Positions 1-30,550 of a stretch of 64,000 bases of DNA are shown in pieces. Position 1 is the stretch's first letter; each line of letters begins with the position of its first letter. A program made the translations under genes and the position numbers. The notes beneath the pieces are model-generated. The model saw only the letters and a list, made by a program, of their open reading frames with translations, was not told the DNA's origin and did not search any database. The stretch lies in contig CAKPDM010000001.1 of the NCBI GenBank assembly GCA_934148995.1, positions 69,073 to 133,072 of the forward strand, written 5' to 3'. Source of the stretch: an uncultured Bacilli bacterium (GTDB lineage Bacteria; Bacillota_I; Bacilli_A; RF39; UBA660).

Positions 1-369
1 TCCCATCTGTTTTGTACTTTTTGTTCATACCATCACTTAAATCTACACTATATAATTTAATGTCTTTTGTATCAGCTTGATAACTAGAAATAGTTGATGC
101 TAATTCTGTATCAGTACTATCATAATAAACTACGTAATATTCTTCATTATCAACAGTAAATGATTCTCCAGCTAATATCTTATCATATTGAATAGTTGAC
201 TCAGTAACTTGTTCTTGCTTCCTTCTCTTAGTTACTTCTTTAGATAAAATTCTTGTTGTTAAAAAATACATAAAAAGTAATAGTAATAAACCACAGATAA
301 TTATGATAACAATTCTTTTTCCAGCTCCTTGCATTTCATTACTATTATTGTAATAACCTTTATTCATAA
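1..369 (-). CDS. Hypothetical membrane-anchored protein, partial (N-terminus in window, rest beyond window start)
   Basis: ATG at 369 (minus) follows GGAGG RBS; translation MNKGYYNNSNEMQGAGKRIVIIICGLLLLLFMYFLTT... has one N-terminal TM helix; open to window edge; not in ORF track because partial. Confidence 0.35.
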
Positions 370-376
370 TACCTCC

Positions 377-1902: not shown

Positions 1903-1918
1903 TTACAGTGCACTGTAA
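1903..1918. promoter_or_regulatory. Perfect 16-bp palindrome TTACAGTGCACTGTAA in asnS upstream region (operator-like)
   Basis: seen directly; no spacer so more like a dimeric protein-binding site than a terminator hairpin; followed by T-run. Confidence 0.3.
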
Positions 1919-1965
1919 TTTTTTACTATTTTTAGAAATTTATTACGATATAACAGAATATTTCT

Positions 1966-1992
1966 GTACAAAAAAATAGTCACATTGACTAT
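1966..1992 (-). terminator. Rho-independent terminator of lipoprotein gene (hairpin overlaps stop codon)
   Basis: minus strand reads TAGTCA-ATG-TGACTA followed by TTTTTTG. Confidence 0.5.
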
Positions 1993-2999
1993 TTCATTGT
2001 TGGTAACACATTTATTGAAGATGCTATCTCTACTAACTCTTCTTGATTCATTACATCACTTACTAAGTAATACTCCATATTACCACTACTCCAAGTAAGT
2101 GAATTATCAGATAGAGCTCCAATTGTATCCATAAACATATATGGTTCTCCAATAGTTGGAATGATAGTTAATTCATCTTCCTTTTTAGCAGTTTCTTCTA
2201 CTAATAAAAATGGTTTCTCGCCTTCAAAAGTAAGAATTACTCTTTCTCCACCAGTTTTAGTTAGTTTTTCCTCACTTTTTAGTTTTGTTCCTTCTGGTAC
2301 TACTAGCGGATAAATAATATCATCAATACTACTAGTTTGTTTAGTATCTTTTGTATCAGTATCTTCAAAAGTACTCATAATGTCTTCAATTTCAAAATAG
2401 TTCTTTCCAAACTTTGGACTCTTATCAACACTTTTGACATTTAAAGTGATTTTTGGAATATCATTATCATTAAGTACTTCTACTTTTTTGACTGTTAATT
2501 TATTATCTACTGTTACTTTTTGTTTTATTAAATTTCTATTATTTGGATAATTTACAGTACTAGTAAAAATATAATTATTTTTATCTTTTTCCATAGTAGC
2601 TTTATTATCATTTTCTATATCTTGAATAATTGATTGTAACAAATAGACCTGTGAATTATTATAAGGCCAGTCACTTTGGAACTTGAAACTTTTCTTTAAA
2701 CTAGGTGTTAGAACATAAACTCCCTCATCATTTTTTAAAATTATTTGTTCATGATCATTAGCTGTATTTTTCAAACTTATTCTGTAATAATCACCTTTTT
2801 TATATGCTGATGTTACTTGGTAATTATAAGTATCGTCATTATTAACTACTTCTAACTTTCCTGTTAAGATATAACCTTTACTATTGTTTATATCTTTAGA
2901 CATATTTTTTAAAACATTTTGCTCACCATTTTTAGAACAACCAGTGACAACTAAAAGAGAAAGTAGTAATAAAAGACTAATCTTTTTCAATATATTCAC
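1989..2999 (-). CDS. Putative lipoprotein (signal peptide + lipobox LVVTGC)
   Basis: MNILKKISLLLLLSLLVVTGCSKNG; rest hydrophilic, N/K/T-rich; no recognisable catalytic motif. Confidence 0.6.
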   Translation of the reverse strand: MNILKKISLLLLLSLLVVTGCSKNGEQNVLKNMSKDINNSKGYILTGKLEVVNNDDTYNYQVTSAYKKGDYYRISLKNTANDHEQIILKNDEGVYVLTPSLKKSFKFQSDWPYNNSQVYLLQSIIQDIENDNKATMEKDKNNYIFTSTVNYPNNRNLIKQKVTVDNKLTVKKVEVLNDNDIPKITLNVKSVDKSPKFGKNYFEIEDIMSTFEDTDTKDTKQTSSIDDIIYPLVVPEGTKLKSEEKLTKTGGERVILTFEGEKPFLLVEETAKKEDELTIIPTIGEPYMFMDTIGALSDNSLTWSSGNMEYYLVSDVMNQEELVEIASSINVLPTMK

Positions 3000-3101
3000 C
3001 TCATTTATGTTTTCATTTCATTATATTAAAAATTTTTCTTAAATATTCACGAATAATTTTAAAAAAAATTACAAAGACTAAAAAAGAAAAAGGAGGAATT
3101 T

Positions 3102-3296
3102 ATGGATACATTAAAAAAAGTATGTTTAGTATTAATTATAATTGGAGCGATTAACTGGGCTTTTGTTGGATTATTCAATATCGACTTAGTTGCTTCTTTA
3201 TTTGGAGGCTCTGATAATATTATTGCTAAAATTATTTATATTATTATAGGTATTGCTGGTTTAATTGATATCAGTTATTTATTTGACCACGACTAA
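3102..3296 (+). CDS. DUF378-family small membrane protein
   Basis: 64 aa, two TM helices, motif IGAINWAFVGLF typical of DUF378. Confidence 0.6.
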   Translation: MDTLKKVCLVLIIIGAINWAFVGLFNIDLVASLFGGSDNIIAKIIYIIIGIAGLIDISYLFDHD

Positions 3297-3321
3297 AAAA
3301 AGAGCTTTCGCTCTTCTTTTA
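3297..3321. terminator. Bidirectional terminator between convergent DUF378 gene and cdaR
   Basis: AAAAAAAGAGC-TTTC-GCTCTTCTTTT hairpin flanked by A-run and T-run. Confidence 0.5.
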
Positions 3322-4677
3322 CTTTGCAGTAATTTTAACTTTGACTTTCTTAACTTTTGGTGTGTAAGTAAGTTTTACATCATCACCTGTTACTTTAACT
3401 TCAACTTCATGTTCACCAACGCCTAAATCTTTTAGGTCTACATAAGCTTTAATAATTGATTGATCAATATTATCAATTATTGACTTACTACCTTTAACTA
3501 CTACTGTTACTTTACTATCTGCTTCACTGGAAGCCTGTACTTTGTACTTAGATGTATCTAAGTTTTCAGTAGCAATTGATATATCTTGGAATTCTTTAAC
3601 AGTTGAATCATCAATTACCACTTTAACAGTTACCGTCTTAGTACTGATATCAGTAACTCCTGTTGGTTTCTTAAGTGTTACTGTATAATCTTTGCTCTTT
3701 TCAAGTCCAGTTACATCTACTTCTACTGGTAAAGAACTAATATTTGCTAATGCTTCTTCACTACCATAAACTGTTACATTAGTAACACTTGTACTTAAAG
3801 ACTTAATTGCTTTACCGAAAGCTAAATCTCCTTTTGGTACTATCTTTAGTGGTACTTCTTTACTTGGTGAAGTAATAACTACTTTAGCTGTTACAGTTTT
3901 AGGTACAATTTCTACATCAACTACTTTTCCGTTTGTATCATATGCAACTAATTGAACATTCTTAAGTGTCATTTCTCCAGGTTCTGGGTTAACAAAGTCA
4001 TCTACATCTACTAAAGCTTTTACTGTAGCAACTTTCTTAAGTTTCTGTTCTGCACCTTTGATAATAACTTCGCTACGATCTAGTTCTACTTTATCAATAT
4101 TTAACTTACTATCTAAATTATCTTTATGTAAGATATCATAAGTTAATGTTCTAGTAGCACTTACTTTTTCGTAAATTGTTACTGTTACAGATGATGGATC
4201 TAATCTATAATCTAATGATTTAAGTCTTTGACTATATTTTAGTGTAACTTTATGTTGACCTGGTTTTAATCCTGTAAGGTCTACTGTTACTCCTTCACTT
4301 GGTGATTGCTTTGCTAAGAAGATATGTCTTTTTTGTCCTACCAGTGTTATATCAACTGTTTTTGGTAGGCCTTCAACTACATAAGCTTCTTCATTATAAG
4401 TAGCTGTTACTGGTTGAGCATAAAGTATTTCAGCATACTGATCAATAGTAGCACTACTTTCACCATCTATTATGAAAAAGATACACAGTGCCACTAATAA
4501 ACTAATAACTATAAGTGTTTGTTTTCTTCCTAAAAATCTTTCTATACTTTTAGCATTTTTCTTTGAAAAATCAGTAACTTTTAAAATCAACTTTGTTATG
4601 GGAGTAATTAAAATACGGTCAAAGAAAGCTCCAATATGGGAAAAAATTTTTCCTATTCCTCTAAATATCTTCTTCAT
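3319..4677 (-). CDS. cdaR: CdaA regulatory protein CdaR (YbbR-like repeats), membrane anchored
   Basis: 452 aa; N-terminal TM, repeated beta-rich YbbR-like modules (VTV.., KV.., TGDDVKL); overlaps cdaA by 17 bp as in cdaA-cdaR operons. Confidence 0.7.
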   Translation of the reverse strand: MKKIFRGIGKIFSHIGAFFDRILITPITKLILKVTDFSKKNAKSIERFLGRKQTLIVISLLVALCIFFIIDGESSATIDQYAEILYAQPVTATYNEEAYVVEGLPKTVDITLVGQKRHIFLAKQSPSEGVTVDLTGLKPGQHKVTLKYSQRLKSLDYRLDPSSVTVTIYEKVSATRTLTYDILHKDNLDSKLNIDKVELDRSEVIIKGAEQKLKKVATVKALVDVDDFVNPEPGEMTLKNVQLVAYDTNGKVVDVEIVPKTVTAKVVITSPSKEVPLKIVPKGDLAFGKAIKSLSTSVTNVTVYGSEEALANISSLPVEVDVTGLEKSKDYTVTLKKPTGVTDISTKTVTVKVVIDDSTVKEFQDISIATENLDTSKYKVQASSEADSKVTVVVKGSKSIIDNIDQSIIKAYVDLKDLGVGEHEVEVKVTGDDVKLTYTPKVKKVKVKITAK

Positions 4678-5494
4678 ATAACTCTTCCTCTTCTAATTCT
4701 TCCTGATCATAAGTACTATTTGTTTTTGGTTTTAATTCATCTATTAACATCATTCTAACATCATCTAATGATAAGTTATAATAAAGTTCTCCCTTAATAG
4801 CTACTGATAAACGACCGGTTTCTTCTGACACAACCAAACAAATAGCATCTGTTTCTTCTGCTAGTCCTAAAGCAGCTCTATGTCTTGTTCCAACATGTTT
4901 ATTTATTTTTGTACTACTACTAGTTGGAAATACTGCTCCAGCACAAGTTATACGATCTCCTTGAATAATAACTCCTCCATCATGAAGTGGGTTACCTTCA
5001 TAGAATATTGCCCCTAATAGGTCACTTGTTAAATCTGCGTAAACTTTTTTAGCTTTATCAATGTAATTGCCTAAACTTACATCACGTTCTATTACCATTA
5101 AGGCACCGATACGATTTTTTCTTAAGTAATCCATTGCTTGAATTATTTCGTAGACTAAGTGTTCTCTTTCATCTACAGTTAAAGTTTTATGTCTTCCTAA
5201 AAGTTGACTTCTTCCTAATTGTTCTAGAATATTACGTATTTCTGGTTGGAAGATAACGATAAGTGCTAGTGGTCCATACATAATTATATATTCAAGTAGA
5301 ACACCTACTGTAGTAAAACCACAAATATCACTTATTACTTTCAAAAATACGATAATAACGACACCTTTAAATAAAAGTGTCAATTTTACACTATTTCTAA
5401 TGCTTTTTAATAATATATATACCATTAACCAAACTATTGAAATATCAATAATTTTTTTAATTATTGTAATTACTGTCGTTGCTGTAATAACCAT
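4661..5494 (-). CDS. cdaA: Diadenylate cyclase CdaA (DisA_N/DAC domain)
   Basis: 277 aa; three N-terminal TM helices then DAC motifs ...GAIFYEGNPLHDGGVII..., RHRAALGLAEETDAICLVVSEETG. Confidence 0.85.
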   Translation of the reverse strand: MVITATTVITIIKKIIDISIVWLMVYILLKSIRNSVKLTLLFKGVVIIVFLKVISDICGFTTVGVLLEYIIMYGPLALIVIFQPEIRNILEQLGRSQLLGRHKTLTVDEREHLVYEIIQAMDYLRKNRIGALMVIERDVSLGNYIDKAKKVYADLTSDLLGAIFYEGNPLHDGGVIIQGDRITCAGAVFPTSSSTKINKHVGTRHRAALGLAEETDAICLVVSEETGRLSVAIKGELYYNLSLDDVRMMLIDELKPKTNSTYDQEELEEEELYEEDI

Positions 5495-5549
5495 ATCTTT
5501 CCTCCTTACTTCTTATTAGTATACTATATTTTTATTAATTTGTAATCTC

Positions 5550-6230
5550 CTAATTAGCTTGTTCTTTCACTGGTTGTACTGTTGTATTATTTTCAACTAT
5601 AACTTGTGGTATAGGATTTATCTTTAATGGTTCAACTGATTGTGGAGTAGCTACTGTCTGTTGTGGCTTTTCTATAACCTCCTGCACTACTGGAGTCTGA
5701 TTAGTTACCACTGTTTGAATTGTCGGAAGTGGTTCTTTTACTGCTGTTACATTTGTAGAAACTGGTTGTGCTTGAACAACAGTTGTTACAGGTGACACTA
5801 CTGGCTTAACTTCTTGAGCAGTGTTTGTTACAGGTTGAACTACCGTTTGAGCTGCTTGAACAGGTGTTACAACTGTTTTAACTGGTTCTACTGGAACAGT
5901 TTTTATTTCTTCTACTGGTTGTACCACCACTTGTTGGTGAACTTGTGGAACTGCTTGTTCTACTGCTACCGACTGAGCTACAGGAATCTCATTAACTGGA
6001 GTTACCACTGCACTAACAACAGGAATTGGGGCGGTTGCCTCAACTGATTTGACCACTTCACCAGGACCAGCTACCTCGGCATATTTCTCTTTTTGTTTCT
6101 TTTCCTTGATTTTATTTTCTGCTAAATAGCCAATACAAGCAAATATTAAAATGATTGCAATTATCACTACGATAACATAAACAGGACCACTAAGAGTGTC
6201 CCTAAAAAAATGTACAAAAACTTCCATCAT
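5550..6230 (-). CDS. Membrane-anchored low-complexity protein (V/P/Q/T-rich periodic repeats)
   Basis: 226 aa; one TM (VYVIVVIIAIILIFACIGYL) then ~170 aa of VxPV/QxVV-type repeats; nucleotide sequence visibly periodic. Confidence 0.5.
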   Translation of the reverse strand: MMEVFVHFFRDTLSGPVYVIVVIIAIILIFACIGYLAENKIKEKKQKEKYAEVAGPGEVVKSVEATAPIPVVSAVVTPVNEIPVAQSVAVEQAVPQVHQQVVVQPVEEIKTVPVEPVKTVVTPVQAAQTVVQPVTNTAQEVKPVVSPVTTVVQAQPVSTNVTAVKEPLPTIQTVVTNQTPVVQEVIEKPQQTVATPQSVEPLKINPIPQVIVENNTTVQPVKEQAN

Positions 6231-6276
6231 TCACCCTCTATTCTTATCTTTATAATAACATTATGAGCTTTCTTTT

Positions 6277-8088
6277 TCAAGAATTGTTTTCTCTTAACAC
6301 TAAATAAATATAACTAGTATAAAAAGGTATTAAGAAGACAAATGGCATACTATATCTAAAGTAGGTATTAGCAGGAGAAATGAAACAAATTAACAATGAT
6401 AGAAAGCTTGGCAACATAGCAATTATGTATTTCTTTTCTTTTGAACATAGTAAGTAAACAATAATTGTTAATAAAGCCATAGCTGAAAATCCAATATTTG
6501 ATAATAAACCTACTACTGGTAAATAAGGAAATATTATTCCATAACCAGAAAGAACAGTTCTTAAAAATGATAATTTATTATAATGATAATTAACTAAATT
6601 ATCTTCAGTTATTAATTTGTTATAATTTTTTCCAGAATAGATATACCAATTAGAAGTATCTGGATAAAAATAACCATAAGTATTATTTAAAGTTGCTTCC
6701 AAATAAGTTGCTGGATGAAGTAAAAACTCTTTCCACCAAACTTGAAAATAATCTTTTAATTCTTTCTTTGTTGTATATTTATTATATTGATTTTTAACCG
6801 GATCAGCTAAGTTTGGATTATATCTTTCTTTTAATGTATCATAACCTAATACTTTATCTATTTTTTCTTTTTCTTCTTCACTAATTTCTTTTTCGTGTTC
6901 TTTTACATATCTTGCTGTTTGTTGAAATGGTACTGATAATTGTTCTCTAACACTTCCTGCTGGTATCTTTAATGCTGGTAAAAGAACTTTATCATAACCT
7001 ATATAAGTAGTTAAGACAAATAGTAATAAAACACTAAGACAAAGTAATTCTTTTCTTTTGTAGATAGCTAAGACAATTAAAGTTAATACGGCTACATAAA
7101 TACCATTATTTCTTAGTAGATATAGCAAAATACTTAAAGTACCAAGAGCAATATACTCTTTTGTTTCTATTTCTTTCTTATCTACTATTTTAAACAATGT
7201 CATTACAAAGAAAATTAGTATAGCTGTATAAAGTGTATCTTTAACAGCACTCATTGCATAGAAAGGAAACATCGGTACTAATGAATAGATTGCTAATAAA
7301 ATTAGTGCTAAGCTAACTGACTTGTTTTTTTTATAAAGATACGAAATAGTACAAGCTAAGCTACTTGCTAAAGTAATACTTTGCATTATTGCATATAAAA
7401 ATAAACCAAAATTATCACTACCAAATAAACGACCGATTTTTATAGAAGTCCCTAACAACATAGTATGAAATACTGGATGGTGATTAGTTAAGTTTACTTT
7501 ATTTGATAATGGAATAACATAATCTATATATTTTGTTTTTACATTGAAAAACTGTTTTATTTGAAAGCTTGGGTCTTTTGATAAAATCAAAGGATAAAAT
7601 GCTAACATATAGATAGACCAAGCTATTAAGATAACTACTACTGAAAAGAGAAATGGGTGACTTTTAAATTTCTTAATTAGTTTATTATTAGTATTAATTT
7701 TAATAGATACTTTTCTTTCTAAAAATGTATCAATAAAATAAAATATTGTCTTTATTAAATAGTAATAGCAAAATAATTGAACTAAACTTATCAAAATAAG
7801 AGTAGGACTATTAAAGACTAAACCAAAGGAACCTATCTCTTGATAACTAGCTCCTATTACATAACAAAAAGAGAAAATACCTGCTAAAATATGTTTTAAA
7901 GGAGATGTCTTTTTATTATACCTTTTATAGAAAAGATAAAATGTTATAACTAGTATAGCCATTAATGAAAAACCTAGTTTTACTATATTTATATTAGGCA
8001 TTACTTTATCATAAATCATTTTTTTATTAATTGACATTGCTAAAACAGTTAATACACTTAGTAGGAAATAAACTATTTTCTTCTTCAT
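6277..8088 (-). CDS. Polytopic integral membrane protein, possible GT-C-fold glycosyltransferase (YfhO/PMT-like)
   Basis: 603 aa, >12 predicted TM helices and a soluble loop ~aa 380-480; divergent from a GT2 gene and next to DUF368. Confidence 0.4.
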   Translation of the reverse strand: MKKKIVYFLLSVLTVLAMSINKKMIYDKVMPNINIVKLGFSLMAILVITFYLFYKRYNKKTSPLKHILAGIFSFCYVIGASYQEIGSFGLVFNSPTLILISLVQLFCYYYLIKTIFYFIDTFLERKVSIKINTNNKLIKKFKSHPFLFSVVVILIAWSIYMLAFYPLILSKDPSFQIKQFFNVKTKYIDYVIPLSNKVNLTNHHPVFHTMLLGTSIKIGRLFGSDNFGLFLYAIMQSITLASSLACTISYLYKKNKSVSLALILLAIYSLVPMFPFYAMSAVKDTLYTAILIFFVMTLFKIVDKKEIETKEYIALGTLSILLYLLRNNGIYVAVLTLIVLAIYKRKELLCLSVLLLFVLTTYIGYDKVLLPALKIPAGSVREQLSVPFQQTARYVKEHEKEISEEEKEKIDKVLGYDTLKERYNPNLADPVKNQYNKYTTKKELKDYFQVWWKEFLLHPATYLEATLNNTYGYFYPDTSNWYIYSGKNYNKLITEDNLVNYHYNKLSFLRTVLSGYGIIFPYLPVVGLLSNIGFSAMALLTIIVYLLCSKEKKYIIAMLPSFLSLLICFISPANTYFRYSMPFVFLIPFYTSYIYLVLRENNS

Positions 8089-8226
8089 AAATACCTCTTT
8101 TCTATTTAATTATATACTATTTAATAGAATTTTAACTATTTTTCTTCACTGATATTGTAAATAGTTGTCGTTTAATTACAGAAGTTAAATCAATTTTTAC
8201 TTCATAAGTTTTAATGAGGTGAAAAT

Positions 8227-9528
8227 ATGGGAACTAGTATTATTATTCTTACTTACAATAATTTAGAAAAAACAAAGTTATGTCTTGAAAGCATTAGAAA
8301 ATATACCAAGGATGAAGTTTATGAAATTATCGTCGTTGATAACCATTCTACTGATGGAACAAAAGAATGGTTAAAGGTTCAAAATGATATAAAGGTTATT
8401 TACAATGATACTAATTTAGGTTTTCCGATAGGTTGCAATCAAGGGATTGAAATAGCTAATCATAATTACGATATACTTCTTCTTAATAATGACACTATTG
8501 TTACTAGTAATTGGTTAACTAATTTAAGGAAGTGTTTATATCATAGTAATAGCATTGGAGCAGTTGGACCAATTTCTAATTGTAATGACAATTTACAAGG
8601 GTGTAATTTTATTTATAATGATTATCAAGATATGCAAAGTAAAGCTAGTTTAAATAATATCAGTGATAATAATCGGTGGGAAGAAAAGGCCTTTTTAATT
8701 GGTTTTTGTCTTTTAATTAAAAGAGCAGTTATTAATAAAATTAAAGTTTTAGATACTAGTTATTCACCAGGTTATATAGAAGACAATGATTTATCATTAC
8801 AAATTATTTCTTTAGGATATAAACTATTTTTATGTCATGATTCATTCGTTTATCACGATAGAGGAACAGCATTCCGAAGTGATACTGCTAAGTTCAATGC
8901 ACTTATTCTAAAAAACAGACAAATATTTGAAAATAAATGGCATTTCTCTTGTTTTGAATTTGATAAAAGTAAAAATGCTTCTATTTTTTTAGGAAGTGGT
9001 AATAACATTTTAGATTACAACTCTGGTATTGGGGTTTCTTCTTTAAGAATTAAGTATTATTTTAAAAATGCTAATATCACTTCTCTTGAAAGCGATGATA
9101 ATAAGAGATTGTTTAGTAATAAGTTTTTTAAAACGGTTAAGTCTTTAGAAGAACTAGATAATTCTTCATTTGATACTATTTATATTGGTAATTCTTTAGA
9201 GTCCGTTGATAATCCTTTTGTTTTTCTTAATTCATTAAAAAGATATTTAACTACTAATGGAAAAATAGTTGGTGAATGTAAAAATATTAGTTCTATAAAA
9301 AACATCAGCTTGTTATTAAATGACAACTGGTATTATGAAAATTTCGAGAAACAAAATTATTTTACAAGTAATGATATTACTCATCTAGCAACTGATTCTG
9401 GTTATAAGGTTACCACTCTTTATCCTTTCACTTGTAATTTAAGTGACAAAGAAAAAGAATTAGAAAAGTTATTTGGTTCTAATTCTCTTAATACTTACTA
9501 TTATTCTTTTGTTCTTGAAAGACTATAA
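8227..9528 (+). CDS. Family 2 glycosyltransferase fused to C-terminal class I SAM-methyltransferase-like domain
   Basis: N-term IILTYNNLEKT..VVDNHSTDGT (GT2 DxD context), C-term LDYNSGIG / FDTIYIGNSLE / GKIV resembling MTase motifs I-III. Confidence 0.65.
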   Translation: MGTSIIILTYNNLEKTKLCLESIRKYTKDEVYEIIVVDNHSTDGTKEWLKVQNDIKVIYNDTNLGFPIGCNQGIEIANHNYDILLLNNDTIVTSNWLTNLRKCLYHSNSIGAVGPISNCNDNLQGCNFIYNDYQDMQSKASLNNISDNNRWEEKAFLIGFCLLIKRAVINKIKVLDTSYSPGYIEDNDLSLQIISLGYKLFLCHDSFVYHDRGTAFRSDTAKFNALILKNRQIFENKWHFSCFEFDKSKNASIFLGSGNNILDYNSGIGVSSLRIKYYFKNANITSLESDDNKRLFSNKFFKTVKSLEELDNSSFDTIYIGNSLESVDNPFVFLNSLKRYLTTNGKIVGECKNISSIKNISLLLNDNWYYENFEKQNYFTSNDITHLATDSGYKVTTLYPFTCNLSDKEKELEKLFGSNSLNTYYYSFVLERL

Positions 9529-10416
9529 TTATTCATCTTTTGCTAATTCTTTTTTATAGAATGGTAAGTTTTTAACTTGTTGAAATGCTAATACTATTAC
9601 TACTCCTATAATAAAGAATATTATACTGAATGTCTTTAATGTCATTGCTGCTTGTGGAACTTTTAATGTTGTTGGTCCAATTACTATTGCATATAATGAA
9701 CCAATCATCATTCCAATAATAGCATATACAATCGCACTACGATGATTATCTAGTAGTTTCTTTATTAATCTTAAAACTGTTGCTACTCCGAAAAGTATAC
9801 CAAGTCCTAAAGTAAATAGTAAAGCAAAGCTACTAAAATCGAAATGTAAAAAATCTTTTACACCATTGATTACTGGTATATATAAACCAAAAGATAAAAG
9901 AATTGTTGAACCAGAAATTCCTGGTAAAACCATTGCAGATATAGCAAGCATTCCTGCTATAAATATATAAACAAGCATTCCGATATTTAAGTGTGTTAAG
10001 TCTAGATTACTTCCCATTTTTAATGATGATAATAAAATAACAGCTGCTGCTCCGATGATAGCCCAAATAATATTCTGATATTTTCCTTTAACAGATTCTT
10101 TTTCTTCCATAATCATTACTGGAATTGCTGCTATAATGAATCCTAAGAATAAGGAACTCATCTTGTATATCTCTTTATCAAATAAGTTAGCTAGAATAGT
10201 AACAGCTAAGCCCATTCCAACAATCCAACCTACAAATATCTTAGCTAGAAATTTAATTGATTTTATTCTTTCTTCTTTTGTACCTTTCATTAAATAGTTT
10301 AATGAATTAATAAATTTATCAAAAAATCCCATTAAAAATGCGATTGTTCCGCCACTTACTCCTGGAACACTATCAGCTAATGCCATAAAGAAACCTCTTA
10401 TGAAGTCAATAATCAT
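9529..10416 (-). CDS. DUF368-family membrane protein (polyprenyl-phosphate transporter family)
   Basis: 295 aa; duplicated motif PGVSGGTIAFLMG ... PGISGSTILLSFG characteristic of DUF368. Confidence 0.6.
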   Translation of the reverse strand: MIIDFIRGFFMALADSVPGVSGGTIAFLMGFFDKFINSLNYLMKGTKEERIKSIKFLAKIFVGWIVGMGLAVTILANLFDKEIYKMSSLFLGFIIAAIPVMIMEEKESVKGKYQNIIWAIIGAAAVILLSSLKMGSNLDLTHLNIGMLVYIFIAGMLAISAMVLPGISGSTILLSFGLYIPVINGVKDFLHFDFSSFALLFTLGLGILFGVATVLRLIKKLLDNHRSAIVYAIIGMMIGSLYAIVIGPTTLKVPQAAMTLKTFSIIFFIIGVVIVLAFQQVKNLPFYKKELAKDE

Positions 10417-12713: not shown

Positions 12714-15014
12714 TTATTCTGTTCTAAGTGCTACTACTGGGTCTTTTTTACTAGCCATTTTTGCAGGAATAAAACCACTAAGTACCGTTAGAGAAACACT
12801 AATTAGTAAGAGAATAAGAGCGTGAATAGGATTTAATTTTGCTACAGAAGCTAATCCTGATAAATTTTCTATTATTCTGTTAGCTGGAAATGTTAACAGA
12901 TAAGCAATAACTAATCCTAAAATTCCACTACATAGACCAATTAACATAGTTTCAGCATTAAACACTCTTGTTATATCTTTAGCTCTTGCTCCTAAAGCTC
13001 TTAAAATTCCAATTTCTTTAGTTCTTTCTAAAACTGATATGTAGGTAATTATAGCTATCATTATACTAGATACCACTAAAGATATAGATGAGAATGCAAT
13101 TAAAACTACTGTAATAGCATCCATTATACCACTTGATAAACTACTCATTAACTTAGCCATATCGGTATAAGTTATCTTATCAGTATCTCCTTTATTTTTA
13201 TTATACCTATCTAAGTAACTTGTTATTTTATCTTTACTTTTAAAATCTTTTGGATAAAGATAAATAACTGCTGGAATTTCATCTGCTCCTAAATAAGCAA
13301 GAACATCATTCTTAGTTGTAGTATCATCAAAACTTGCTCCTGTTAAGATATTGTAATCTAATTCTTCTTGTCTCTTTACAATATCACTTTCTTTATTTAT
13401 AGAAATAATCTTATCAACTAATGCTCCTGTATAATAAATAGCAGCTTGATTAGTAAACATTTCTTTATCTTCTTTGCCTCTAATGATGGCTTTTATTTTA
13501 ACAGTTATACTATTTTCACTATTGTACATTTTTTCGTAATTACTATCAGGAATGAAGTTTGCCCCTAATTGTTTATAATAGTCATTATTAGTAATTAGTT
13601 TAATTTCTTTATTTAAGATATCATCAAATGAGATATTTTTAGTTGAATCAAAACCTAAACTTTCAATTAATGATTTATCAACACCATTTTTTGAATCTAT
13701 TGCTAAAATTAAACCTATTTCTTTACTGTCAATACTACCAGCTAATACATCATAATTATCTTCCACTACACCAGTTTCTTTTTCACTAGTTCTAGTTGGA
13801 AATAATTGATATGACATACTGTTCGACATATCTATTTTTTTATAATTATTATCTTTATCCACAGTTACTAAATTAAGTCCAGTCTTTTTAAGATATGATA
13901 TTCCACTCAAAAGATTTTTATCAATACTATCTACGTAGTTTAAATAATCAGAAGTAATATTATTAGTATGAATCATTTTTTCCACAACTGATTCTGTTGG
14001 TTTTACTACCTTTTCATTTGGATATTTATCTTTCTTATCAGTATTAGTTTGCATTTGTTCTTCAAGAGTTGATTCATCCATTTGCATAGCTTGACTACTA
14101 ATAGTTATTGGCATTTGTGATAAAGTGCTTTTCTCAAATTTATCTATTTGAAGTTGAAAACCATTTGATAAAGATAGAATTAAAGCAATACCAATTATTC
14201 CAATTGAAGCAGCAAAAGCTGTTAAAAAGGTTCTACCTTTCTTTGTTTTTATGTTATTAAAAGATAAATGAATTGCTGATAAATAACTTAATACTGTTTT
14301 TCTAATATGAACTTTACCAAGATTTTCTTCTTCACTATTAATAGGATTTGAATCTGATAAAATTTTTCCATCTTTAAATTCTATTATTCTATTAGCATAG
14401 TCTTTAGCAAGCTCTGGATTGTGAGTTACCATTATTACTAATTTATCTTTAGCTATTTCTTTAATAAGATTCATTATCTGAACACTAGTAGCAGAGTCAA
14501 GCGCTCCAGTTGGTTCATCAGCAAGAATTATATCGGGATCATTTACTAAGCTTCGAGCAATAGCTACTCTTTGCATTTGACCACCACTTAATTGATTTGG
14601 TTTTTTATAAGCATGATCTTTTAAACCAACTTTTTCTAAAGCTTCTAAAGCTTTTTCTTTCTTATTTTTTCTTTTATAGCCAGATAAAGTCAAAGCCATT
14701 TCCACATTTTCTAAAACACTTATATGACTTATTAAGTTATAAGACTGAAAAATAAAACCAACACAATTATTTCGATAACTATCCCATTCTGTTGCTTTAA
14801 ACTTTTTTGTACTTTTTCCATTAATAATCAAATCACCAGAATCATATCTATCTAAACCACCAATTATATTTAGTAAAGTGGTTTTTCCACTACCTGAAGG
14901 ACCAAGAATAGCAACAAACTCATTTTTTCGAAAACTTAAATCCACGTTTTTCAAAGCATGTTGAACAAAGTTGCCAGTTTTATAACTTTTATTTATATTT
15001 TTTAATTCTAACAT
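12714..15014 (-). CDS. ABC transporter, fused ATPase-permease of MacB/FtsX type
   Basis: 766 aa; N-terminal Walker A GPSGSGKTT, signature LSGGQMQRVAIAR, Walker B ILADEPT; large extracytoplasmic domain and C-terminal FtsX-like 4-TM permease. Confidence 0.8.
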   Translation of the reverse strand: MLELKNINKSYKTGNFVQHALKNVDLSFRKNEFVAILGPSGSGKTTLLNIIGGLDRYDSGDLIINGKSTKKFKATEWDSYRNNCVGFIFQSYNLISHISVLENVEMALTLSGYKRKNKKEKALEALEKVGLKDHAYKKPNQLSGGQMQRVAIARSLVNDPDIILADEPTGALDSATSVQIMNLIKEIAKDKLVIMVTHNPELAKDYANRIIEFKDGKILSDSNPINSEEENLGKVHIRKTVLSYLSAIHLSFNNIKTKKGRTFLTAFAASIGIIGIALILSLSNGFQLQIDKFEKSTLSQMPITISSQAMQMDESTLEEQMQTNTDKKDKYPNEKVVKPTESVVEKMIHTNNITSDYLNYVDSIDKNLLSGISYLKKTGLNLVTVDKDNNYKKIDMSNSMSYQLFPTRTSEKETGVVEDNYDVLAGSIDSKEIGLILAIDSKNGVDKSLIESLGFDSTKNISFDDILNKEIKLITNNDYYKQLGANFIPDSNYEKMYNSENSITVKIKAIIRGKEDKEMFTNQAAIYYTGALVDKIISINKESDIVKRQEELDYNILTGASFDDTTTKNDVLAYLGADEIPAVIYLYPKDFKSKDKITSYLDRYNKNKGDTDKITYTDMAKLMSSLSSGIMDAITVVLIAFSSISLVVSSIMIAIITYISVLERTKEIGILRALGARAKDITRVFNAETMLIGLCSGILGLVIAYLLTFPANRIIENLSGLASVAKLNPIHALILLLISVSLTVLSGFIPAKMASKKDPVVALRTE

Positions 15015-19970: not shown

Positions 19971-20348
19971 TGGTGGAGATGAGGGGTATCGAACCCCTGT
20001 CCAAAAATAGAGCTACATAAACTTCTACAAGTTTAGATTGTTTATTAAATTCAAATTATAGTAAAGAAACAATCAACCAAACTACGATTCTAGTCTTATA
20101 CTATTCAGCTATTTACTAAGACGATAAATAACTATATCTTACTAAAATAAACCGTACAATCTTAACGTAAGAAATTAAGAAAGACAGCGTACAAGCCTAT
20201 TCTTAGGCAAATGCTAAACTAGTGTTTCCACCAAAGTTTGCAAGTACATTTTTAATTTTGTTTCCAGTTATTCTGGTTTAATCTGTAACGTAGATAATTC
20301 GACTTGCTATCTATGCTCTACTATTCCTGTCGAATCCAAGACATCCCC
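19971..20348 (-). ncRNA. ssrA: tmRNA (SsrA)
   Basis: 5' GGGGATGTCTTGGATTCGACAGG... and 3' ...GGACAGGGGTTCGATACCCCTCATCTCCACCA; acceptor stem with G3:U70; internal tag reading frame; smpB immediately upstream. Confidence 0.9.
20203..20241 (-). other. tmRNA tag-peptide reading frame: (A)NFGGNTSLAFA-stop
   Basis: GCA AAC TTT GGT GGA AAC ACT AGT TTA GCA TTT GCC TAA; resume codon assignment inferred. Confidence 0.45.
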
Positions 20349-24154: not shown

Positions 24155-26113
24155 TTATTTTTGAGTATCAACTTTCATTTCAAATAGAATATTTCTTAAT
24201 TCCATTGCACGTTCAAAGTCTAATTCTTTAGCAGCTTTCATCATTTCTGTTTCTATTCTTTCGATTTCGTTTAATCTTTCTTGTTTAGTTAATTTCTTAG
24301 TTTTTTTCTTGCTAGCTTTATCTACATTACTTACTACTTCTCTTATTTCTTTAACGATAGTTTTAGGAGTTATATTATGTTCTTTATTATACTTATCTTG
24401 AATAGTTCTTCTTCTTGCTGTCTCATCAATGGCTTTTTGCATACTATCCGTTATTTTATCAGCATACATAATAACGTGACCATCTTTATTTCTAGCACAA
24501 CGACCTATCGTTTGAATTAAGCTTCGCTCGCTTCGTAAAAATCCTTCTTTATCTGCATCCAAGATAGCTATTAATGACACCTCTGGTATATCAATTCCTT
24601 CTCTTAAAAGGTTTATTCCAACAACTACATCATATTTACCAATTCTTAAGTCATGAATAATTTGTAAACGCTCTAAAGTTTTAATTTCCGTATGTAAATA
24701 AGCTACCTTAATATCAACATCTTTTAAATAATTAGTAAGTTCTTCTGCCATTCTAATTGTTAAAGTTGTAATTAAAACTCTTTCATTTTTTTCTTTTCTG
24801 ATTCTTATTTCTTCTATTAAGTTATCAATTTGTCCTTCAGAGCCTCTTACTTCGATAGTAGGGTCAAGTAAACCTGTTGGTCTAATAATTTGTTCAACAT
24901 ACTCACCATCTGTTTTTAGAAGTTCATAATCTCCTGGTGTTGCTGATACGTAGATTGCTTGATTTATCTTCTTTTCAAACTCTTCATATTTTAATGGTCT
25001 ATTATCTAAGGCACTCGGAAGCCTAAAACCATAATCGACAAGATTCATCTTTCTAGCCCTGTCACCATTATACATTCCTCTTACTTGAGGTAAAGTAACA
25101 TGTGATTCATCTACAATTAGTAAATAATCATCATTAAAGAAGTCCATTAACGTGGTTGGAGTTTCTCCTCTTTCTCTACCAGCCATTGGGGCAGAATAGT
25201 TTTCTATTCCGTGACAGAAACCAGTCTCCTCAAGCATTTCCAAATCATAATTTGTTCTTTGTTCTAATCTTTCTGCTGCTAATAATTTATTTTCCTTCTT
25301 TAGTTCCTCTAATCGTTCTTTTAACTCACTTTTTATTCTTTTAATAGCAGCTTTTAATTTTTCATCACTTACTACAAAGTGACTAGCGGGAAAGATACTT
25401 ATTGTCTTTTTATTAGTAACAATTGCTCCTGTTAAAACGTCTATTTCACTTATTCTATCTATTTCACTACCAAAAAACTCAATTCTATAACCAGTTTTAT
25501 CTTGGTTAACTGGTATTATTTCCACTATGTCACCTCTTACTCTAAAAGTTCCACGATGAAAGTCAAAATCATTTCTTTCAAATTGCATTTCTACTAGTTT
25601 AGCAAGAACTTTATCTCTTTCAATTTCATCACCTATACTAAGAGTTAACATTTTATTTTGATATTCTTCTACTTCTCCAATACCGTATATACAAGATACT
25701 GATGCTACAACTATAGTATCTTTATAAGTTAAAAGTGAAGATGTAGCTTCGTGACGCAATTCATCTATTTCATCATTTATGGATGAATCTTTTTCAATAT
25801 AAGTATCAGTACTAGGAACATATGCTTCAGGTTGATAATAATCATAATAAGATACAAAATAACAAACATGATTATTAGGAAATAATTCCTTCATCTCAGC
25901 ATATAACTGACCTGCTAATGTCTTATTATGTGCAAGTATTAAAGTTTGTTTATTGGTTCTTTGAATAACATTTGCCATAGTAAAAGTTTTACCTGTTCCT
26001 GTAGCACCTAGTAATACCTGTTCTTTTACTCCAGATTCTATTCCTTTGACTAATTTTTCTATCGCTTGTGGTTGATCTCCACTTGGTTTAAATTTTGATA
26101 CTAATTCAAACAT
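24155..26113 (-). CDS. uvrB: Excinuclease ABC subunit B
   Basis: 652 aa; [25 protein letters not shown].. [10 protein letters not shown] helicase motifs, C-terminal UvrB/UvrC interaction motif ...[12 protein letters not shown].. Confidence 0.9.
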
Positions 26114-26138
26114 ATCTTGTCCTCCTTATTATGACTCA

Positions 26139-26172
26139 TATCAATCAGAAAATTCGTGTCCAACTACCAAAA
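26139..26172. repeat. Two direct copies of AAAATTCGTGTCC (left repeat of GT2 cassette)
   Basis: 26139-26151 and 26160-26172; inverted partners at 27447-27468. Confidence 0.5.
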
Positions 26173-26349
26173 ATTCGTGTCCTAGAGCCGATTAAATAGG
26201 TCAAAATTTTGGTGGATAGTGATGGTCACACGTCTCGGCTACAAATTTATTAAATGTAAATGAATAATTAATTTTTTCAATAGATTATTTTAACATTATT
26301 TTAATAATAAAACAATGAAGCTACTTTAATGCCTATCATTTTTGTCAAA

Positions 26350-27381
26350 TTATCTGAAGGACCTTTTTATATTACTTTCTGCTGTTTCTCTATCAACATT
26401 TCTATACTCATCATTTGTATATTTATCAAGTCTATTCATATCAAAATTAAATAAGAAATTATTAGATCTATATTGTTTAACAATTTGATTTTCTTGCCAA
26501 TTTTGATACTTAGCATCTAAAATTCCTAGCAAAGAACTTACTACTATTTCTTTTTTCTTATGTGGAAAATTAACCCAAAGCATAGTATTTTCAACTCTAA
26601 ATAAAGTATGTAAAATGTATAAGCTTTCAATTTGATTTTTATATTCCTCTGACAAACCTCTTAATTTCATTTGTTTTTCTACATTTTCCAAACATTTAAT
26701 TATATCTAGAATATTAGGAATTTTGTTAATAAAATCTTTTATAGTTGTATTCATATTAACTCTATAATTATAAACAGGTTCATCCATATGAAATAATTTT
26801 TCAGAACTTGCTACAATAACAGGTATAATTGCTAGATCTTCCCATTTTGTTTTTTCTGGAAATCTTAAATCACCTATTAAATCACGACTTATCAATTTAT
26901 TTCCTATTCCAGGAGTTTCTGTTACTATATAATCTTTAATTTTTCTTACATCTATAACTTTGCTACCTTGTACATCACTCCAACTACATTTATCCTCTGC
27001 TCTAATTGGTCCTATTATAGTTTGATAATTTCCCCTAACTAATTTAACATTATGTTCTTTAGCAATGTTATACATTTTTTCTAAAATGTCTGTTTTTAGA
27101 TAATCATCTGCATCAACAAATTTAATAAACTCTCCATTTGCATTTTCTATTCCAATATTTCTAGCAGACCCTGCCCCACCATTTTCTTTATCAAAAATTT
27201 TTAACGTACCTTTATATTTTTGTGATAATTCATCTAATATATTTAAACTATCATCAGTTGAACCATCATTAATTACAAGTATTTCAATATCCTTCATAGT
27301 TTGATTAGCTATACTTGAAATACATCGTTCTAAATACCTTTCTGCATTATAAACTGGAATAATAACACTAACTTTTCTCAT
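26350..27381 (-). CDS. Family 2 glycosyltransferase
   Basis: 343 aa; MRKVSVIIPVYNAERYLERCISSI...INDGSTDDS...VDADD typical GT2. Confidence 0.75.
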   Translation of the reverse strand: MRKVSVIIPVYNAERYLERCISSIANQTMKDIEILVINDGSTDDSLNILDELSQKYKGTLKIFDKENGGAGSARNIGIENANGEFIKFVDADDYLKTDILEKMYNIAKEHNVKLVRGNYQTIIGPIRAEDKCSWSDVQGSKVIDVRKIKDYIVTETPGIGNKLISRDLIGDLRFPEKTKWEDLAIIPVIVASSEKLFHMDEPVYNYRVNMNTTIKDFINKIPNILDIIKCLENVEKQMKLRGLSEEYKNQIESLYILHTLFRVENTMLWVNFPHKKKEIVVSSLLGILDAKYQNWQENQIVKQYRSNNFLFNFDMNRLDKYTNDEYRNVDRETAESNIKRSFR

Positions 27382-27446
27382 CTAATTTATCCTCCTATTT
27401 TTATATTTTTACTCAAAATAACCACAATTTCAAATCAATTTTTTAA

Positions 27447-27468
27447 GACACGAATGGATACGAATTTT
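27447..27468. repeat. Inverted copies of the cassette repeat (GACACGAAT / GGATACGAATTTT)
   Basis: reverse complement of AAAATTCGTGTCC motif seen left of the GT2 gene. Confidence 0.45.
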
Positions 27469-27571
27469 GGTCACAAATTTACATTTCGTTATATATTTTT
27501 ATTTAGTCTTTTTATAGTATTTTTGAGGGATTGAATAAACCTAAAAAATGTTGAAATAAAAGTTTTTTAGG

Positions 27572-27744
27572 TTGGTTCTCTGGATAACATTTGCCATAGT
27601 AAAAGTTTTACCTGTTCCTGTAGCACCTAGTAATACCTGCTCTTTTACCCTAGATTCTATTCCTTTAACTAATTTTTCTATCGCTTGTGGTTGATCTCCA
27701 CTGGTTTAAATTTTGATACTTATTCAAACATATCTTTCCTCCTC
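27572..27744 (-). pseudogene. Degenerate duplicate of uvrB 5' end (RBS + first ~53 codons), inactivated
   Basis: ~173 bp aligning to 25953-26125 with ~8 substitutions and 2 indels; copy reads ATG TTT GAA TAA (L4 to stop) and is frameshifted downstream. Confidence 0.75.
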
Positions 27745-27849
27745 ATCTTTATTATAAACAGTTAATATATATTTTTCCCCATTTCTTATGAATTATCTAT
27801 ATTATAATTATCAAATATACGTTCGTCAATAGTTTTTTTGCAAAAAGAA

Positions 27850-27881
27850 AAGAGTAACTTCTTTTATAAAGTCTTACTCTT
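27850..27881 (-). terminator. Possible terminator hairpin at M15 peptidase gene 3' end (AAGAGTAA...TTACTCTT)
   Basis: 8-bp stem with 16-nt loop spanning the stop codon, T-rich tail on minus strand. Confidence 0.3.
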
Positions 27882-28601
27882 CTTTACATTTGACATTCTT
27901 TCTTTTATCTCTTTCATCTTCGCTTCATTTGGTTCAAAATGTTGCCAGTCACAAGACCATTCATCACTCTGTAATGGCCATATTCCTCCACATTCATAAC
28001 CAACACTATCAAATACTTTACAAATAGAATCATTAAGAGTAATGATATGTTTATTCTCTTTGGCTTTTTCTTCTCTATCAATCAATAAACTCTTCTCATA
28101 ATCAGTTAATAAATTATCATCAAATGTTCCATCACTATTTCTTGGTGTATATGGATTATCTAATGGATTAATATCAATAGCAAGTCCATAAGCATGATTT
28201 GATAAAGCAGTTTTATTAGGTATTTTTCTATAACAAAAACTACTACTATTATTACTAGCAACGCTATTTCTATCAGTAGTTACACCATCTTTATCCCAAA
28301 AATCATCTATTAAACGTATAGAATTGATTTGATATTTTAATAAGAATAAATTAGAAAATACTTCTCGTACTTCATCAATTATTACTTTATTAACAATCAT
28401 CTCACCTACTACTACATCACCATCATAATTATAATGTAACATCTTAATATATGTTAAATCATCAAGAGATATGTCATCATTCTTTTGATAACTCTTTCCA
28501 TTTATTCTTTGATAAACATCATCATTTTCCTTTATGTCTTTATTTTCAAAAATAAATTCTTTAGAATTAACTTTTTCCCCAATTTTTAAATTATCTAACA
28601 T
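27864..28601 (-). CDS. Peptidase M15 family (D-Ala-D-Ala carboxypeptidase/VanY-like) protein
   Basis: 245 aa; SxHxxGxAxD-type HAYGLAIDINP and ...DWQHFEP... zinc-ligand context. Confidence 0.55.
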   Translation of the reverse strand: MLDNLKIGEKVNSKEFIFENKDIKENDDVYQRINGKSYQKNDDISLDDLTYIKMLHYNYDGDVVVGEMIVNKVIIDEVREVFSNLFLLKYQINSIRLIDDFWDKDGVTTDRNSVASNNSSSFCYRKIPNKTALSNHAYGLAIDINPLDNPYTPRNSDGTFDDNLLTDYEKSLLIDREEKAKENKHIITLNDSICKVFDSVGYECGGIWPLQSDEWSCDWQHFEPNEAKMKEIKERMSNVKKSKTL

Positions 28602-29119: not shown

Positions 29120-30550
29120 TTATTCCTCCAATATTTTCTTATACAATTTTTTCTTTTTGTCTTTTAGTACAACTTTATAATTTTTATTATTTTTCATATA
29201 ATTAGAAAAGTAATCTTTATGTTCTACTAAAATATAATCAAAATCATATTTAGCTAAAAACTTTTTATAATCAGTTGTTTTCTTTCCAATATTAAAAGCC
29301 TCAGCAAGTATATCTTCTTTCTTATTATTAGACTTTAAAAATATTTCAGCCCTACCATCTAGGTATGGATGATAACCAGCATATTCAAAACATGAACCAT
29401 TATCATAATCTGTATATATCTTTACATCCTTAGTAGCATTTTTATCTAAGTAATCAATATATTTTTGATCAACGTTAATTAATGTATAATCATGATTTGC
29501 TATTTCCACACCAGCATATAGCAGAGCAGCTACACCTACTATTACATACAACTTTAATGGAAAAGTATAAGTCTTTCCTTCTTTAAAATGTAAATACTTA
29601 CTCCAAAATGGTAATACACAGGCACAAAAAATACTAACATTTCTAAAATTTCTAAAGGCCATATAACTTATTCCAAAAGTCAAAAAAAACTGTGAAATTG
29701 ATATTTTATCTTTATTTTTTAACATTAAAAACATAGTAATTAGAAAAGTAATTAGAAAACTAACATTAGATATAAATAAAGGTTCTTTAAAAGTAAATCT
29801 TGACATTTCTACAATTTCTTCATCTATAATTGAAACTCCATAAGATGTTAACGAATAAAACATATTTTTTATTCCATAAGGATTTATTAATCCTACCAAA
29901 AAGGAAATTATTAATACAATAATCAAAGTAAATAATCTTTTATCCTTCTTTTTATAGTATAAGTATGAAAATTCAACTAAGAATGGAAGAGAAAAGACGA
30001 AAAAGCATAACCACATCGAAGCATGAAAATTAATTAGTAATAACGACACTACTGGTAGCAAATAAATCTTCTTACTAGATTCTTTTAAGAATAATTCTAA
30101 AAGATAAATCAATACTATAAATAGTAATAAGCTATAAATGTAAGGTCGCGGTGTTAAAAAGAATATTTGTAAAAGGACATCTATTATACAAGTGGTTATT
30201 ACTGAATTAAATATCTTTCCATCACTTAACAAATTACATAACTTATATAAAAAATACATTATTAAAATATTAACAAAAACTATCAATAAAAATAAGCCAA
30301 AACCACCCAGCAATTTATAAACTGAATAAAATGATAAAGCTGAAAGCCACTGTTGCATAACAAATGATAAATTACTATGCATAGATAAAAAATCATACTT
30401 AGGAAAACCCCCTGATACTATCTTGCGACCGTAAGCAAGTAAAAACCAAATATCTTTCTCCTTACAGGAATAAGAACCGATTATTGATAACAATGGAAGT
30501 AAAAAATATAAATAGCACAAGTATTTACTTGGTCGATACTTCTTAAACAT
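29120..30550 (-). CDS. Polytopic membrane protein (possible GT-C / polymerase-like envelope glycan enzyme)
   Basis: 476 aa, ~12 TM helices, C-terminal soluble ~100 aa; adjacent to FAD oxidoreductase and SDR. Confidence 0.4.
   Translation of the reverse strand: MFKKYRPSKYLCYLYFLLPLLSIIGSYSCKEKDIWFLLAYGRKIVSGGFPKYDFLSMHSNLSFVMQQWLSALSFYSVYKLLGGFGLFLLIVFVNILIMYFLYKLCNLLSDGKIFNSVITTCIIDVLLQIFFLTPRPYIYSLLLFIVLIYLLELFLKESSKKIYLLPVVSLLLINFHASMWLCFFVFSLPFLVEFSYLYYKKKDKRLFTLIIVLIISFLVGLINPYGIKNMFYSLTSYGVSIIDEEIVEMSRFTFKEPLFISNVSFLITFLITMFLMLKNKDKISISQFFLTFGISYMAFRNFRNVSIFCACVLPFWSKYLHFKEGKTYTFPLKLYVIVGVAALLYAGVEIANHDYTLINVDQKYIDYLDKNATKDVKIYTDYDNGSCFEYAGYHPYLDGRAEIFLKSNNKKEDILAEAFNIGKKTTDYKKFLAKYDFDYILVEHKDYFSNYMKNNKNYKVVLKDKKKKLYKKILEE

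Follow-up and report, generated by a model that had tools for sequence, protein, structure and literature searches.

A glycosyltransferase cassette in front of uvrB in an uncultured Bacilli bacterium as a probable remnant of a site-specific integrative island

Cis-mobilizable elements (CIMEs) consist of cargo held between the direct repeats of a site-specific integration and carry no genes for recombination or transfer. The SXT element, in the work of Hochhut & Waldor 1999, reportedly supplies a new promoter and a new 5' coding sequence to prfC, which stays functional. The tyrosine integrase of the SXT/R391 elements is described (PMC2791158) as targeting the 5' end of this gene. As islands which integrate at the 5' end of a gene, they are the closest analogue of the locus described here, a cassette with a family 2 glycosyltransferase (GT2) gene at the start of uvrB in a 64,000-nucleotide stretch of DNA, hereafter called the window, from an uncultured Bacilli bacterium (GenBank assembly GCA_934148995.1, contig CAKPDM010000001.1, positions 69,073 to 133,072). 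On the minus strand, to which the other parts of the locus given below also belong, an M15 peptidase gene (27864-28601) is followed by a short uvrB-like stretch, by GT2 (26350-27381) and by uvrB (24155-26113); uvrB encodes a full protein of 652 amino acids (aa) with all UvrB domains present. There is good reason to regard the cassette as a decayed, integrase-less remnant of a site-specific integrative island that targets uvrB, with an attachment (att) site at approximately codons 89-91.

The initial annotation of the locus had described a duplicated uvrB start with the GT2 gene between the copies, and this duplication was confirmed. Positions 25953-26125 (downstream, intact copy) and 27572-27744 (upstream copy) align with approximately 93% identity, including a gapless core of 143 nt at 93%, and contain the uvrB ribosome binding site (RBS) and codons 1-54. 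In the upstream copy, codon 4 has the reported TTA-to-TAA change and codon 11 has lost 1 nt; the RBS spacer differs by 1 nt between the two copies. In the lineage represented by L001 (L numbers designate the loci compared) the upstream copy is an intact open reading frame (ORF) of 63 aa, whereas it is pseudogenised in the lineage of the window. The structure recurs in many independent metagenome assemblies, which rules out an assembly artefact, and the GC profile showed no anomaly over the insert.

Conspecific loci were human-gut metagenome contigs found via the exact UvrB protein in public assemblies; the nearest species-representative genome has 81% UvrB identity. The insertion was filled in 16 and empty in 8 of the 24 conspecific contigs read, near-identical places being counted. 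In the empty allele, read from five distinct contigs (L002, L003, L004, L007 and L009), the M15 gene is followed by 132 nt and then by a single uvrB, whose protein is identical to that of the window and whose DNA is 98.9-99.0% identical, and which is preceded by the promoter TTGACG-17-TATAAT and the RBS GAGGAGGAAAGAT. In the filled allele (L001, L005, L006, L008, L010 and the window), which has the truncated copy, GT2 and a new leader, exactly this native promoter (27801-27829 in the window, which with 11/12 matches ranks first among the promoter-like sites of the region) and this RBS stand before the truncated copy instead, and unrelated sequence with the different RBS AAGGAGGACAAGAT leads into the intact uvrB. 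Therefore, the pseudo-copy is the displaced native uvrB 5' end (the attL-side copy at 27572-27744, hereafter uvrB'), which the native promoter now drives and nothing else, and the functional uvrB has an imported start region, consisting of RBS and leader. The corresponding right end of the island (26114-26349), with the replacement promoter and leader for uvrB, has no counterpart in the empty sites. Since the two copies have different upstream sequences, they are not a target-site duplication. The initial annotation had already doubted that the 173-bp repeat was of the type left by insertion sequences (IS), and the non-identical flanks agree with this; its proposals of an insertion polymorphism at the uvrB 5' end, for which it had suggested looking at relatives without the GT2 gene, and of a non-autonomous cassette were also borne out. 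An empty site in close relatives is one of the features of a site-specific island.

The boundary of the duplication was found at the same place in distant loci. In more than 10 independent loci, the homology between upstream and downstream copies ends at ..TTTGTnTCnTA(yTAyGA), corresponding to codons 89-91, which points to an attachment site inside uvrB at approximately these codons (FVSYYD|YYQPEAY), the crossover point being deduced from the end of homology with an ambiguity of about 15 nt. A junction at codon 95 (CAACC|) was dropped on the basis of the same copy alignments. An alignment of the left junctions of the window and L001 to the L022 and L263 junctions shows matching flanks to either side of a gap of approximately 121 nt, which spans uvrB codons 55-90 and 8 nt of the island end, AG(G/T)AACAC. 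The left junction of the window thus appears to be a deletion derivative of the codon-90 type, in which the deletion took the attL junction, the point at which all other copies break, so that the cassette would no longer be excisable by the original recombinase. The left end of the window is otherwise 85-92% identical to those of L022 and L263 (85% for L263). It begins with a terminator-like hairpin, AACCTAAAAAAC-loop-GTTTTTTAGGTT (27538-27573), which abuts the uvrB' break and is conserved, together with its position, in loci of the Bacilli type (L022, L263) and of the Clostridia type (L095, L231, L261), with a predicted folding energy of -9.9 kcal/mol in the window and of -14.2 kcal/mol, with a T-run following, in L231. 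The hairpin resembles an intrinsic terminator and would stop the orphaned native transcript. It is followed by the left-end motif M1, AAATTTGTGACCAAAATTCGTATCC ATTCGTGTC (27447-27480), which includes the inverted complements noted to the right of GT2 in the initial annotation. One defined site, direct repeats and a restored target gene, as expected of a site-specific island, are represented here by the shared boundary, the repeats and the 652-aa uvrB. Between hairpin and motif there are also TGGAC repeats (2-4 copies with approximately 10-nt phasing) and a conserved GGACTAAAT (window 27481-27537; L166, oriented, 1725-1785), which are candidate integrase arm-type sites.

A layout of uvrB'(1..~90), terminator-like hairpin, motif, cargo, leader and uvrB recurs in many gut Clostridia and Bacilli-like genomes. 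Metagenome contigs were scanned for the motif AATTTGTGRCYNNNATTCGTRT and the first 80 loci among the matches listed were analysed; 60 of them had the motif beside uvrB homology, always on the same strand. The motif was either 120-220 nt upstream of the uvrB ATG (class 1) or, in dozens of metagenome loci, 90-115 nt past the end of a uvrB'(1..88-92) fragment (class 2), and some contigs (L167, L189, L147, L187) had arrays of 2-3 uvrB' fragments. An extra uvrB' fragment was present in two of the 80 species-representative genomes whose UvrB is most similar. One of these, a 'Tenericutes' metagenome-assembled genome (MAG; L040), has uvrB'(13-90) followed only by terminator, promoter and leader, with no cargo. 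The other, a MAG of the Acutalibacteraceae (Clostridia; L095), has uvrB'(2-90), the same CTAAAAAC...GTTTTTAG hairpin, and then motif, ORF, motif and uvrB, the motif AAATTTGTGACYTAAATTCGTGTAA flanking an unrelated ORF on both sides. In L022, uvrB'(1-90), hairpin and motif are followed by GT2, a GDSL-like gene, leader and uvrB, and in L020, where uvrB starts three times, one slot holds GT2 and the next a RhuM-like fragment and a TIR-like pseudogene. Two uvrB 5' copies were thus found without cargo (L040) or with unrelated cargo (L095, L147, L166, L200, L263), an outcome that the initial annotation had itself named as one which would refute its reading. Because the same duplication occurs without GT2, it belongs to an integrase-associated integration module and not to the GT2 gene.

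Tyrosine integrase homologues with 45-64% identity (tblastn) were found directly upstream of motif, leader and uvrB in at least 27 metagenome loci and in the species-representative genomes L063 and L084; they contain the Pfam domains Phage_int_SAM_3 and Phage_integrase. A complete example among the sister islands, L166, has approximately 12 kb between uvrB' and uvrB, encoding an Old-family nuclease, ParA, a NACHT protein of 1390 aa, MobC/NikA and an integrase which is split in two ORFs and lies just upstream of motif, leader and uvrB (a further motif upstream of this integrase was rejected as a false regex match). The cargo of L263 consists of ParA, a ParB-like gene and an 869-aa gene together with a truncated integrase, that of L200 of RhuM and a complete Wadjet JetABCD system, and that of L177 of AbiGii, AbiLi/ii, an ATPase-Toprim protein and PDC-S49. 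The islands can be placed in a series of decay, from 12 kb with a split integrase (L166) through 6 kb with a truncated integrase (L263) and 1.9 kb with a NUDIX gene beside a truncated integrase (L147, L189) to 1.45-1.6 kb with a single gene (L095 and the window) and 0.3 kb without cargo (L040). As the window has no integrase while the sister islands have one, its copy was classified as a remnant and not as a functional member. Further upstream there is often a second, more distantly related paralogue; two tandem tyrosine-recombinase paralogues with approximately 25-28% mutual identity were observed before uvrB in many loci, among them L163 (7083-9349), L151 (oriented, 4144-6368), L190, L198, L220, L246 and L063.

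Viral contigs of IMG/VR gave 0 matches to the left-end pattern and 0 to the motif pattern, and a phage identity of this type of island had no support. When viral contigs were scanned for UvrB, one case was relevant, L137 (IMGVR_UViG_2882654883_000019, 1-10385), in which a decayed uvrB'(9-91) is followed by a 39-kb element encoding Rep ORF2/G2P, RNase H, MazF, ParA, ParB and a C5 methylase. The junction there is different (TATTACGA|AACCTG) and lacks the hairpin, so that almost the same site in uvrB may also serve another kind of element.

For the full islands we propose that the right end carries a tyrosine integrase, a promoter of its own, a leader, an RBS and uvrB codons 1 to approximately 90. 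The integrase would insert the island at uvrB codon ~90 and a functional uvrB would be rebuilt from the island's 5' end, the host promoter and the first ~90 codons being pushed upstream as a dead fragment that is followed by hairpin, motif and cargo. In the lineage of the window, later deletions would have removed the integrase and all cargo except GT2, and a further deletion of approximately 121 nt would have removed codons 55-90 with the attL junction. The remnant could subsequently be gained or lost by homologous recombination, either by double crossover in the flanks or as a Campbell-type circle via the 165-bp repeats, a route which fits the chimeric nature of the copies and the low divergence of the insert described below.

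Close to the junction, every upstream copy departs from the native sequence at third codon positions, as in codons 50 (ATT>ATC) and 51 (CAA>CAG), and all downstream copies have CAG>CAA at codon 14. In the intact uvrB the first ~14-22 codons contain synonymous variants of island or donor type and the remainder is native. Both copies are thus chimeric in a reciprocal manner, the upstream one having a native 5' and a donor-type 3' part and the downstream one a donor-type RBS and first ~14 codons followed by native sequence. The donor-type portion evolved under coding constraint in some other uvrB. Between the window and the L001 lineage, the insert is 99.5%, the right flank 97.6% and uvrB 99.0% identical; since the insert is less diverged than the flank, the cassette was probably exchanged after these two lineages split. 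Homologous recombination is probably the only route by which it is now spread or lost.

Several observations weigh against the origin of the cassette from a site-specific island. A tblastn search of the 64-kb window gave no integrase homologue, so that an integrase at one end is lacking here, and no GT2-carrying copy with an integrase was found; the link between integrase and att site is one of association between neighbouring sequences. The predicted attP would be unusually long, with the leader repeats approximately 310-420 nt from the codon-90 junction. The upstream copy has donor-type, mostly synonymous variants beside the junction, at codons 28-51, which a direct crossover at codon ~90 in this species would not give; they require a cassette formed elsewhere and imported by homologous recombination. 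Finally, the motif flanks the cargo as a near-identical direct repeat of 22-26 bp in L095, L022 and L179, and the crossover could have been at the motif rather than in uvrB.

This last point leads to the alternative that the mobile unit would be the cargo with or without an integrase, with M1 and the related leader motif M2 as attL and attR, in a fixed landing pad formed by uvrB', hairpin, motif, leader and uvrB. L040 resembles such a pad without cargo. In addition, L152 (oriented, 330-900) and L166 (oriented, 1636-2000) are 96% identical through uvrB', hairpin and motif and diverge exactly past the motif, where a 402-aa gene in the former is replaced by the Old nuclease in the latter. However, the conspecific empty sites are without any pad, the hairpin, motif, leader and new RBS having arrived with the cargo, and such a pad would have had to arise or be transferred independently in Clostridia and in Bacilli. 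Beyond the swapped gene, L152 and L166 have ParA in common, which fits an internal slot exchanged by homologous recombination; a variable, swap-prone cargo slot right after the motif is suggested by this comparison. A mobile unit confined to the cargo was therefore considered unlikely.

An origin without any recombinase, in which a circle with a uvrB 5' fragment of approximately 170 bp and GT2 would have entered by a RecA-dependent single crossover of the Campbell type, which on its own leaves the insert between direct repeats, agrees with the expected reciprocal chimerism of both copies and with a cassette that has neither an integrase nor an attL junction. Integrase-bearing islands nevertheless have ends homologous to both ends of the insert, and even distant taxa have the uvrB' boundary fixed at codon ~90, which together make such an origin quite improbable. 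Campbell-type integration may well describe the arrival or spread of an already decayed cassette, as distinct from its origin. An integron cassette was rejected, as the units are punctuated by uvrB' and not by attC, the integrase is uvrB-proximal and of the phage-integrase SAM_3 type, and there were no Rfam or attC-like matches.

The mechanism of the initial annotation, a non-autonomous transposon or a cassette resembling a miniature inverted-repeat transposable element (MITE), with terminal inverted repeats AAAATTCGTGTCC and an unusually long target duplication, is hardly credible in spite of the presence/absence polymorphism and of inverted ATTCGTRTC copies that flank GT2 and are absent from the rest of the window, because the empty-site comparison contradicts it, the upstream sequences of the two copies, native promoter and imported leader, are impossible for a target duplication, the repeats are internal and recur 30-45 nt apart, with no cargo between them, in the uvrB leaders of many genomes, and integrases instead of a transposase accompany the module. 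For IS, MITE and transposons in general, the window contained neither terminal repeats at the ends of the insert nor a transposase nor other copies.

The ATTCGTRTC repeats belong to a conserved motif and leader that accompany uvrB in dozens of other genomes. The window contains 4 copies, two in each spacer flanking GT2, compared with 0.34 expected, and none of 100 shuffles had 4 or more. The pairs are at 26149-26161 and 26170-26182 on the left and, in the opposite orientation, at 27447-27455 and 27456-27468 on the right; the initial annotation was correct in that both pairs exist and are inverted, and its left pair, given as 26139-26172, was misplaced by ten bases. They do not coincide with the junctions but lie approximately 95 nt inward of the left one and 35-70 nt ahead of the uvrB ATG, and are covarying parts of the conserved module of the island, not transposon ends. 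A 5' element, AAATTTGTGRCC-NNN-ATTCGTxxxx, precedes the cargo at the left end as M1 and is present again as M2 (degenerate in the window, 26224-26248) in the uvrB leader, where it is followed after 30-45 nt by one or two 3' elements, xxxxACGAATTT. The left pair in the window corresponds to two 3' elements, GGACACGAATTTT, the second of which comes from a 21-bp tandem duplication, GGACACGAATTTTTGGTAGTT (26148-26182), that is present in L008, L010 and the window, the L001 lineage having one copy.

The leader of the window is 74-78% identical to the leaders of L020, L022, L263 (~75%), L207 and L233. It contains an extended -10 element, TGTTAAAAT (26287-26295), and the new uvrB RBS, AAGGAGGAC (26111-26127). 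In the filled allele uvrB would be transcribed from the extended -10, by read-through from GT2, or by both; the terminator downstream of GT2 is broken in the window and intact in L020 and L022. A DnaA-box-like sequence (window 26211-26219, CTATCCACC), with the consensus CTATYCACC, is conserved in the loop between the 5' and 3' elements and was also seen in the leaders of L263, L207, L095 and L262.

Across 24 diverse leaders the variable extensions of the 5' and 3' elements covary (GTAA/TTAC, GTCC/GGAC, ATCC/GGAT, CCAGG/CCTGG, GCAAT/ATTGC, GTCGA/TCGAC). Pairing was found in 79% of cells, compared with 26-41% in slid controls, double changes occurred in 9/15 pairs, and the covariation score was reached by none of 500 shuffles; columns 25/106, for example, had 15 GC, 3 AU and 3 CG pairs, and columns 27/104 13 AU and 7 CG. 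Four of eight leaders folded better than their shuffles (z = -3.5 to -1.9) and the four others were near 0, including that of the window (+0.37). A count of G·U against A·C mismatches in the repeat pairing (22 and 8) was set aside, as the scoring scheme favoured G·U. No RNA family of Rfam matched the cassette, either in a scan of the locus (E<=1) or in one of the whole window at gathering thresholds, the latter giving a tmRNA and one tRNA only, both away from the cassette. Symmetric protein-binding sites would covary likewise, so that covariation alone does not single out an RNA stem; both an RNA stem and repeated protein-binding sites, for integrase arms or a regulator, are compatible with the pattern.

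The native uvrB promoter contains a half-match to the Cheo/LexA box, CGAACGTATATTTG, at 27812-27825. A perfect box, CGAACAGGTGTTC, with TTGCAA-17-TATAAT was observed in L166 (motif-oriented, 12950-13000) between the integrase and the uvrB leader. As a tentative generalisation, uvrB codon ~90 may be the att site of an undescribed, widespread family of small tyrosine-integrase islands of gut Clostridia and Bacilli-like bacteria, mostly carriers of defence genes, which would replace the SOS-type promoter and 5' end of uvrB with their own structured leader and thereby control excision repair, and the covarying elements might represent a new cis-regulatory RNA or att-arm architecture.

The predicted GT2 protein has 343 aa and its gene has an RBS of its own, AGGAGGA (27379-27396). 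It matches PF00535 with 120.2 bits (cut-off 23.3; E 1.1e-34) and thus belongs to the GT2 family with a GT-A fold. The matches to solved structures, 3bcv, GalT1 (5hea), TarP (6h1j, 6e-20) and TarS (5tze), are confined to the N-terminal GT-A domain, the alignment with TarP and TarS spanning residues 1-131 only and approximately 200 C-terminal residues lying beyond it. Homologues with 72-98% identity occupy varied contexts: those with 92-94% identity in other species are again at uvrB (L020, L022), and more distant ones (72-84%; 75-84% in L012, L014, L017 and L026, which lack the motif) have unrelated surroundings. This identifies GT2 as cargo rather than as a component of the integration machinery. 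Homologues with 83-84% identity were seen beside a tRNA-like sequence, spotted by eye, in L012 (4570-4650) and in a cluster of IS3, KilA-N, GT2 and GDSL in L026 (2925-7206). From its neighbours in the different loci, the GT2 module, with or without GDSL, appears to move between different mobile contexts. The enzyme might have a role in surface-glycan modification, possibly in the masking of a phage receptor.

Other parts of the window also vary within the species. At 29120-30550 (minus strand) the window has one ORF of 476 aa without a Pfam match, where the L001 lineage (161-3013) has two, of 471 and 475 aa; the 3 kb to the left of the M15 gene are only approximately 80% identical between the lineages, and the flanking genes approximately 98-99%. 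The tmRNA gene is beside smpB (window 19971-20348, minus strand, and downstream; L001-L009 12250-13959), and the DNA beyond it differs among conspecific contigs, with NUDIX and a 398-aa gene, a 201-aa gene on the opposite strand, or Mob_Pre (L009). The tmRNA/smpB region looks like a second integration hotspot in the window.

With the cassette understood as the remnant of an island, the long target duplication of the initial annotation becomes an ordinary remnant of site-specific integration, and a hotspot of integration would be located inside uvrB, a gene of an essential pathway, in distantly related gut Firmicutes. The islands bring defence genes (Wadjet, Abi, Old, NACHT) or surface-modifying enzymes and leave uvrB' scars which can be counted. 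Each insertion swaps the host uvrB promoter for the leader of the island and could alter the regulation of excision repair strain by strain; the native promoter, with its half-match to LexA only, no longer abuts uvrB in the filled allele. The combination of uvrB' and motif is a simple signature by which metagenomes can be mined for such islands.

As a decayed site-specific island, the feature of the window is of a known kind; the uvrB hotspot is unreported in the full-text literature searched, within which no report of uvrB as an integration site was found. The cargo resembles TarP of Staphylococcus aureus prophages, likewise one GT-A (GT2) enzyme of comparable length that an integrated element brings along as an accessory gene; the similarity is, however, restricted to residues 1-131. 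As in defence-island hotspots, the sister islands carry Wadjet JetABCD, AbiGii, AbiL, Old/Gabija-like, NACHT and RhuM genes, whereas the sole cargo of the window copy is a glycosyltransferase. The cargo of the window is flanked by direct repeats and has no recombination or transfer genes, as in CIME remnants; unlike in a CIME, in which both att sites are functional and which is mobilised in cis, the junction on the attL side appears to be deleted and only that on the attR side is present, so that mobilisation of the cassette by a cognate integrase is doubtful. Compared with the SXT/R391 elements, the copy in the window has lost the integrase and the attL junction, and the uvrB islands in general target codon ~90, have gut Firmicutes as hosts, are small (0.3-12 kb) and mobilisable at most (MobC/NikA), have a conserved leader with covarying repeats and leave behind arrays of uvrB' scars.

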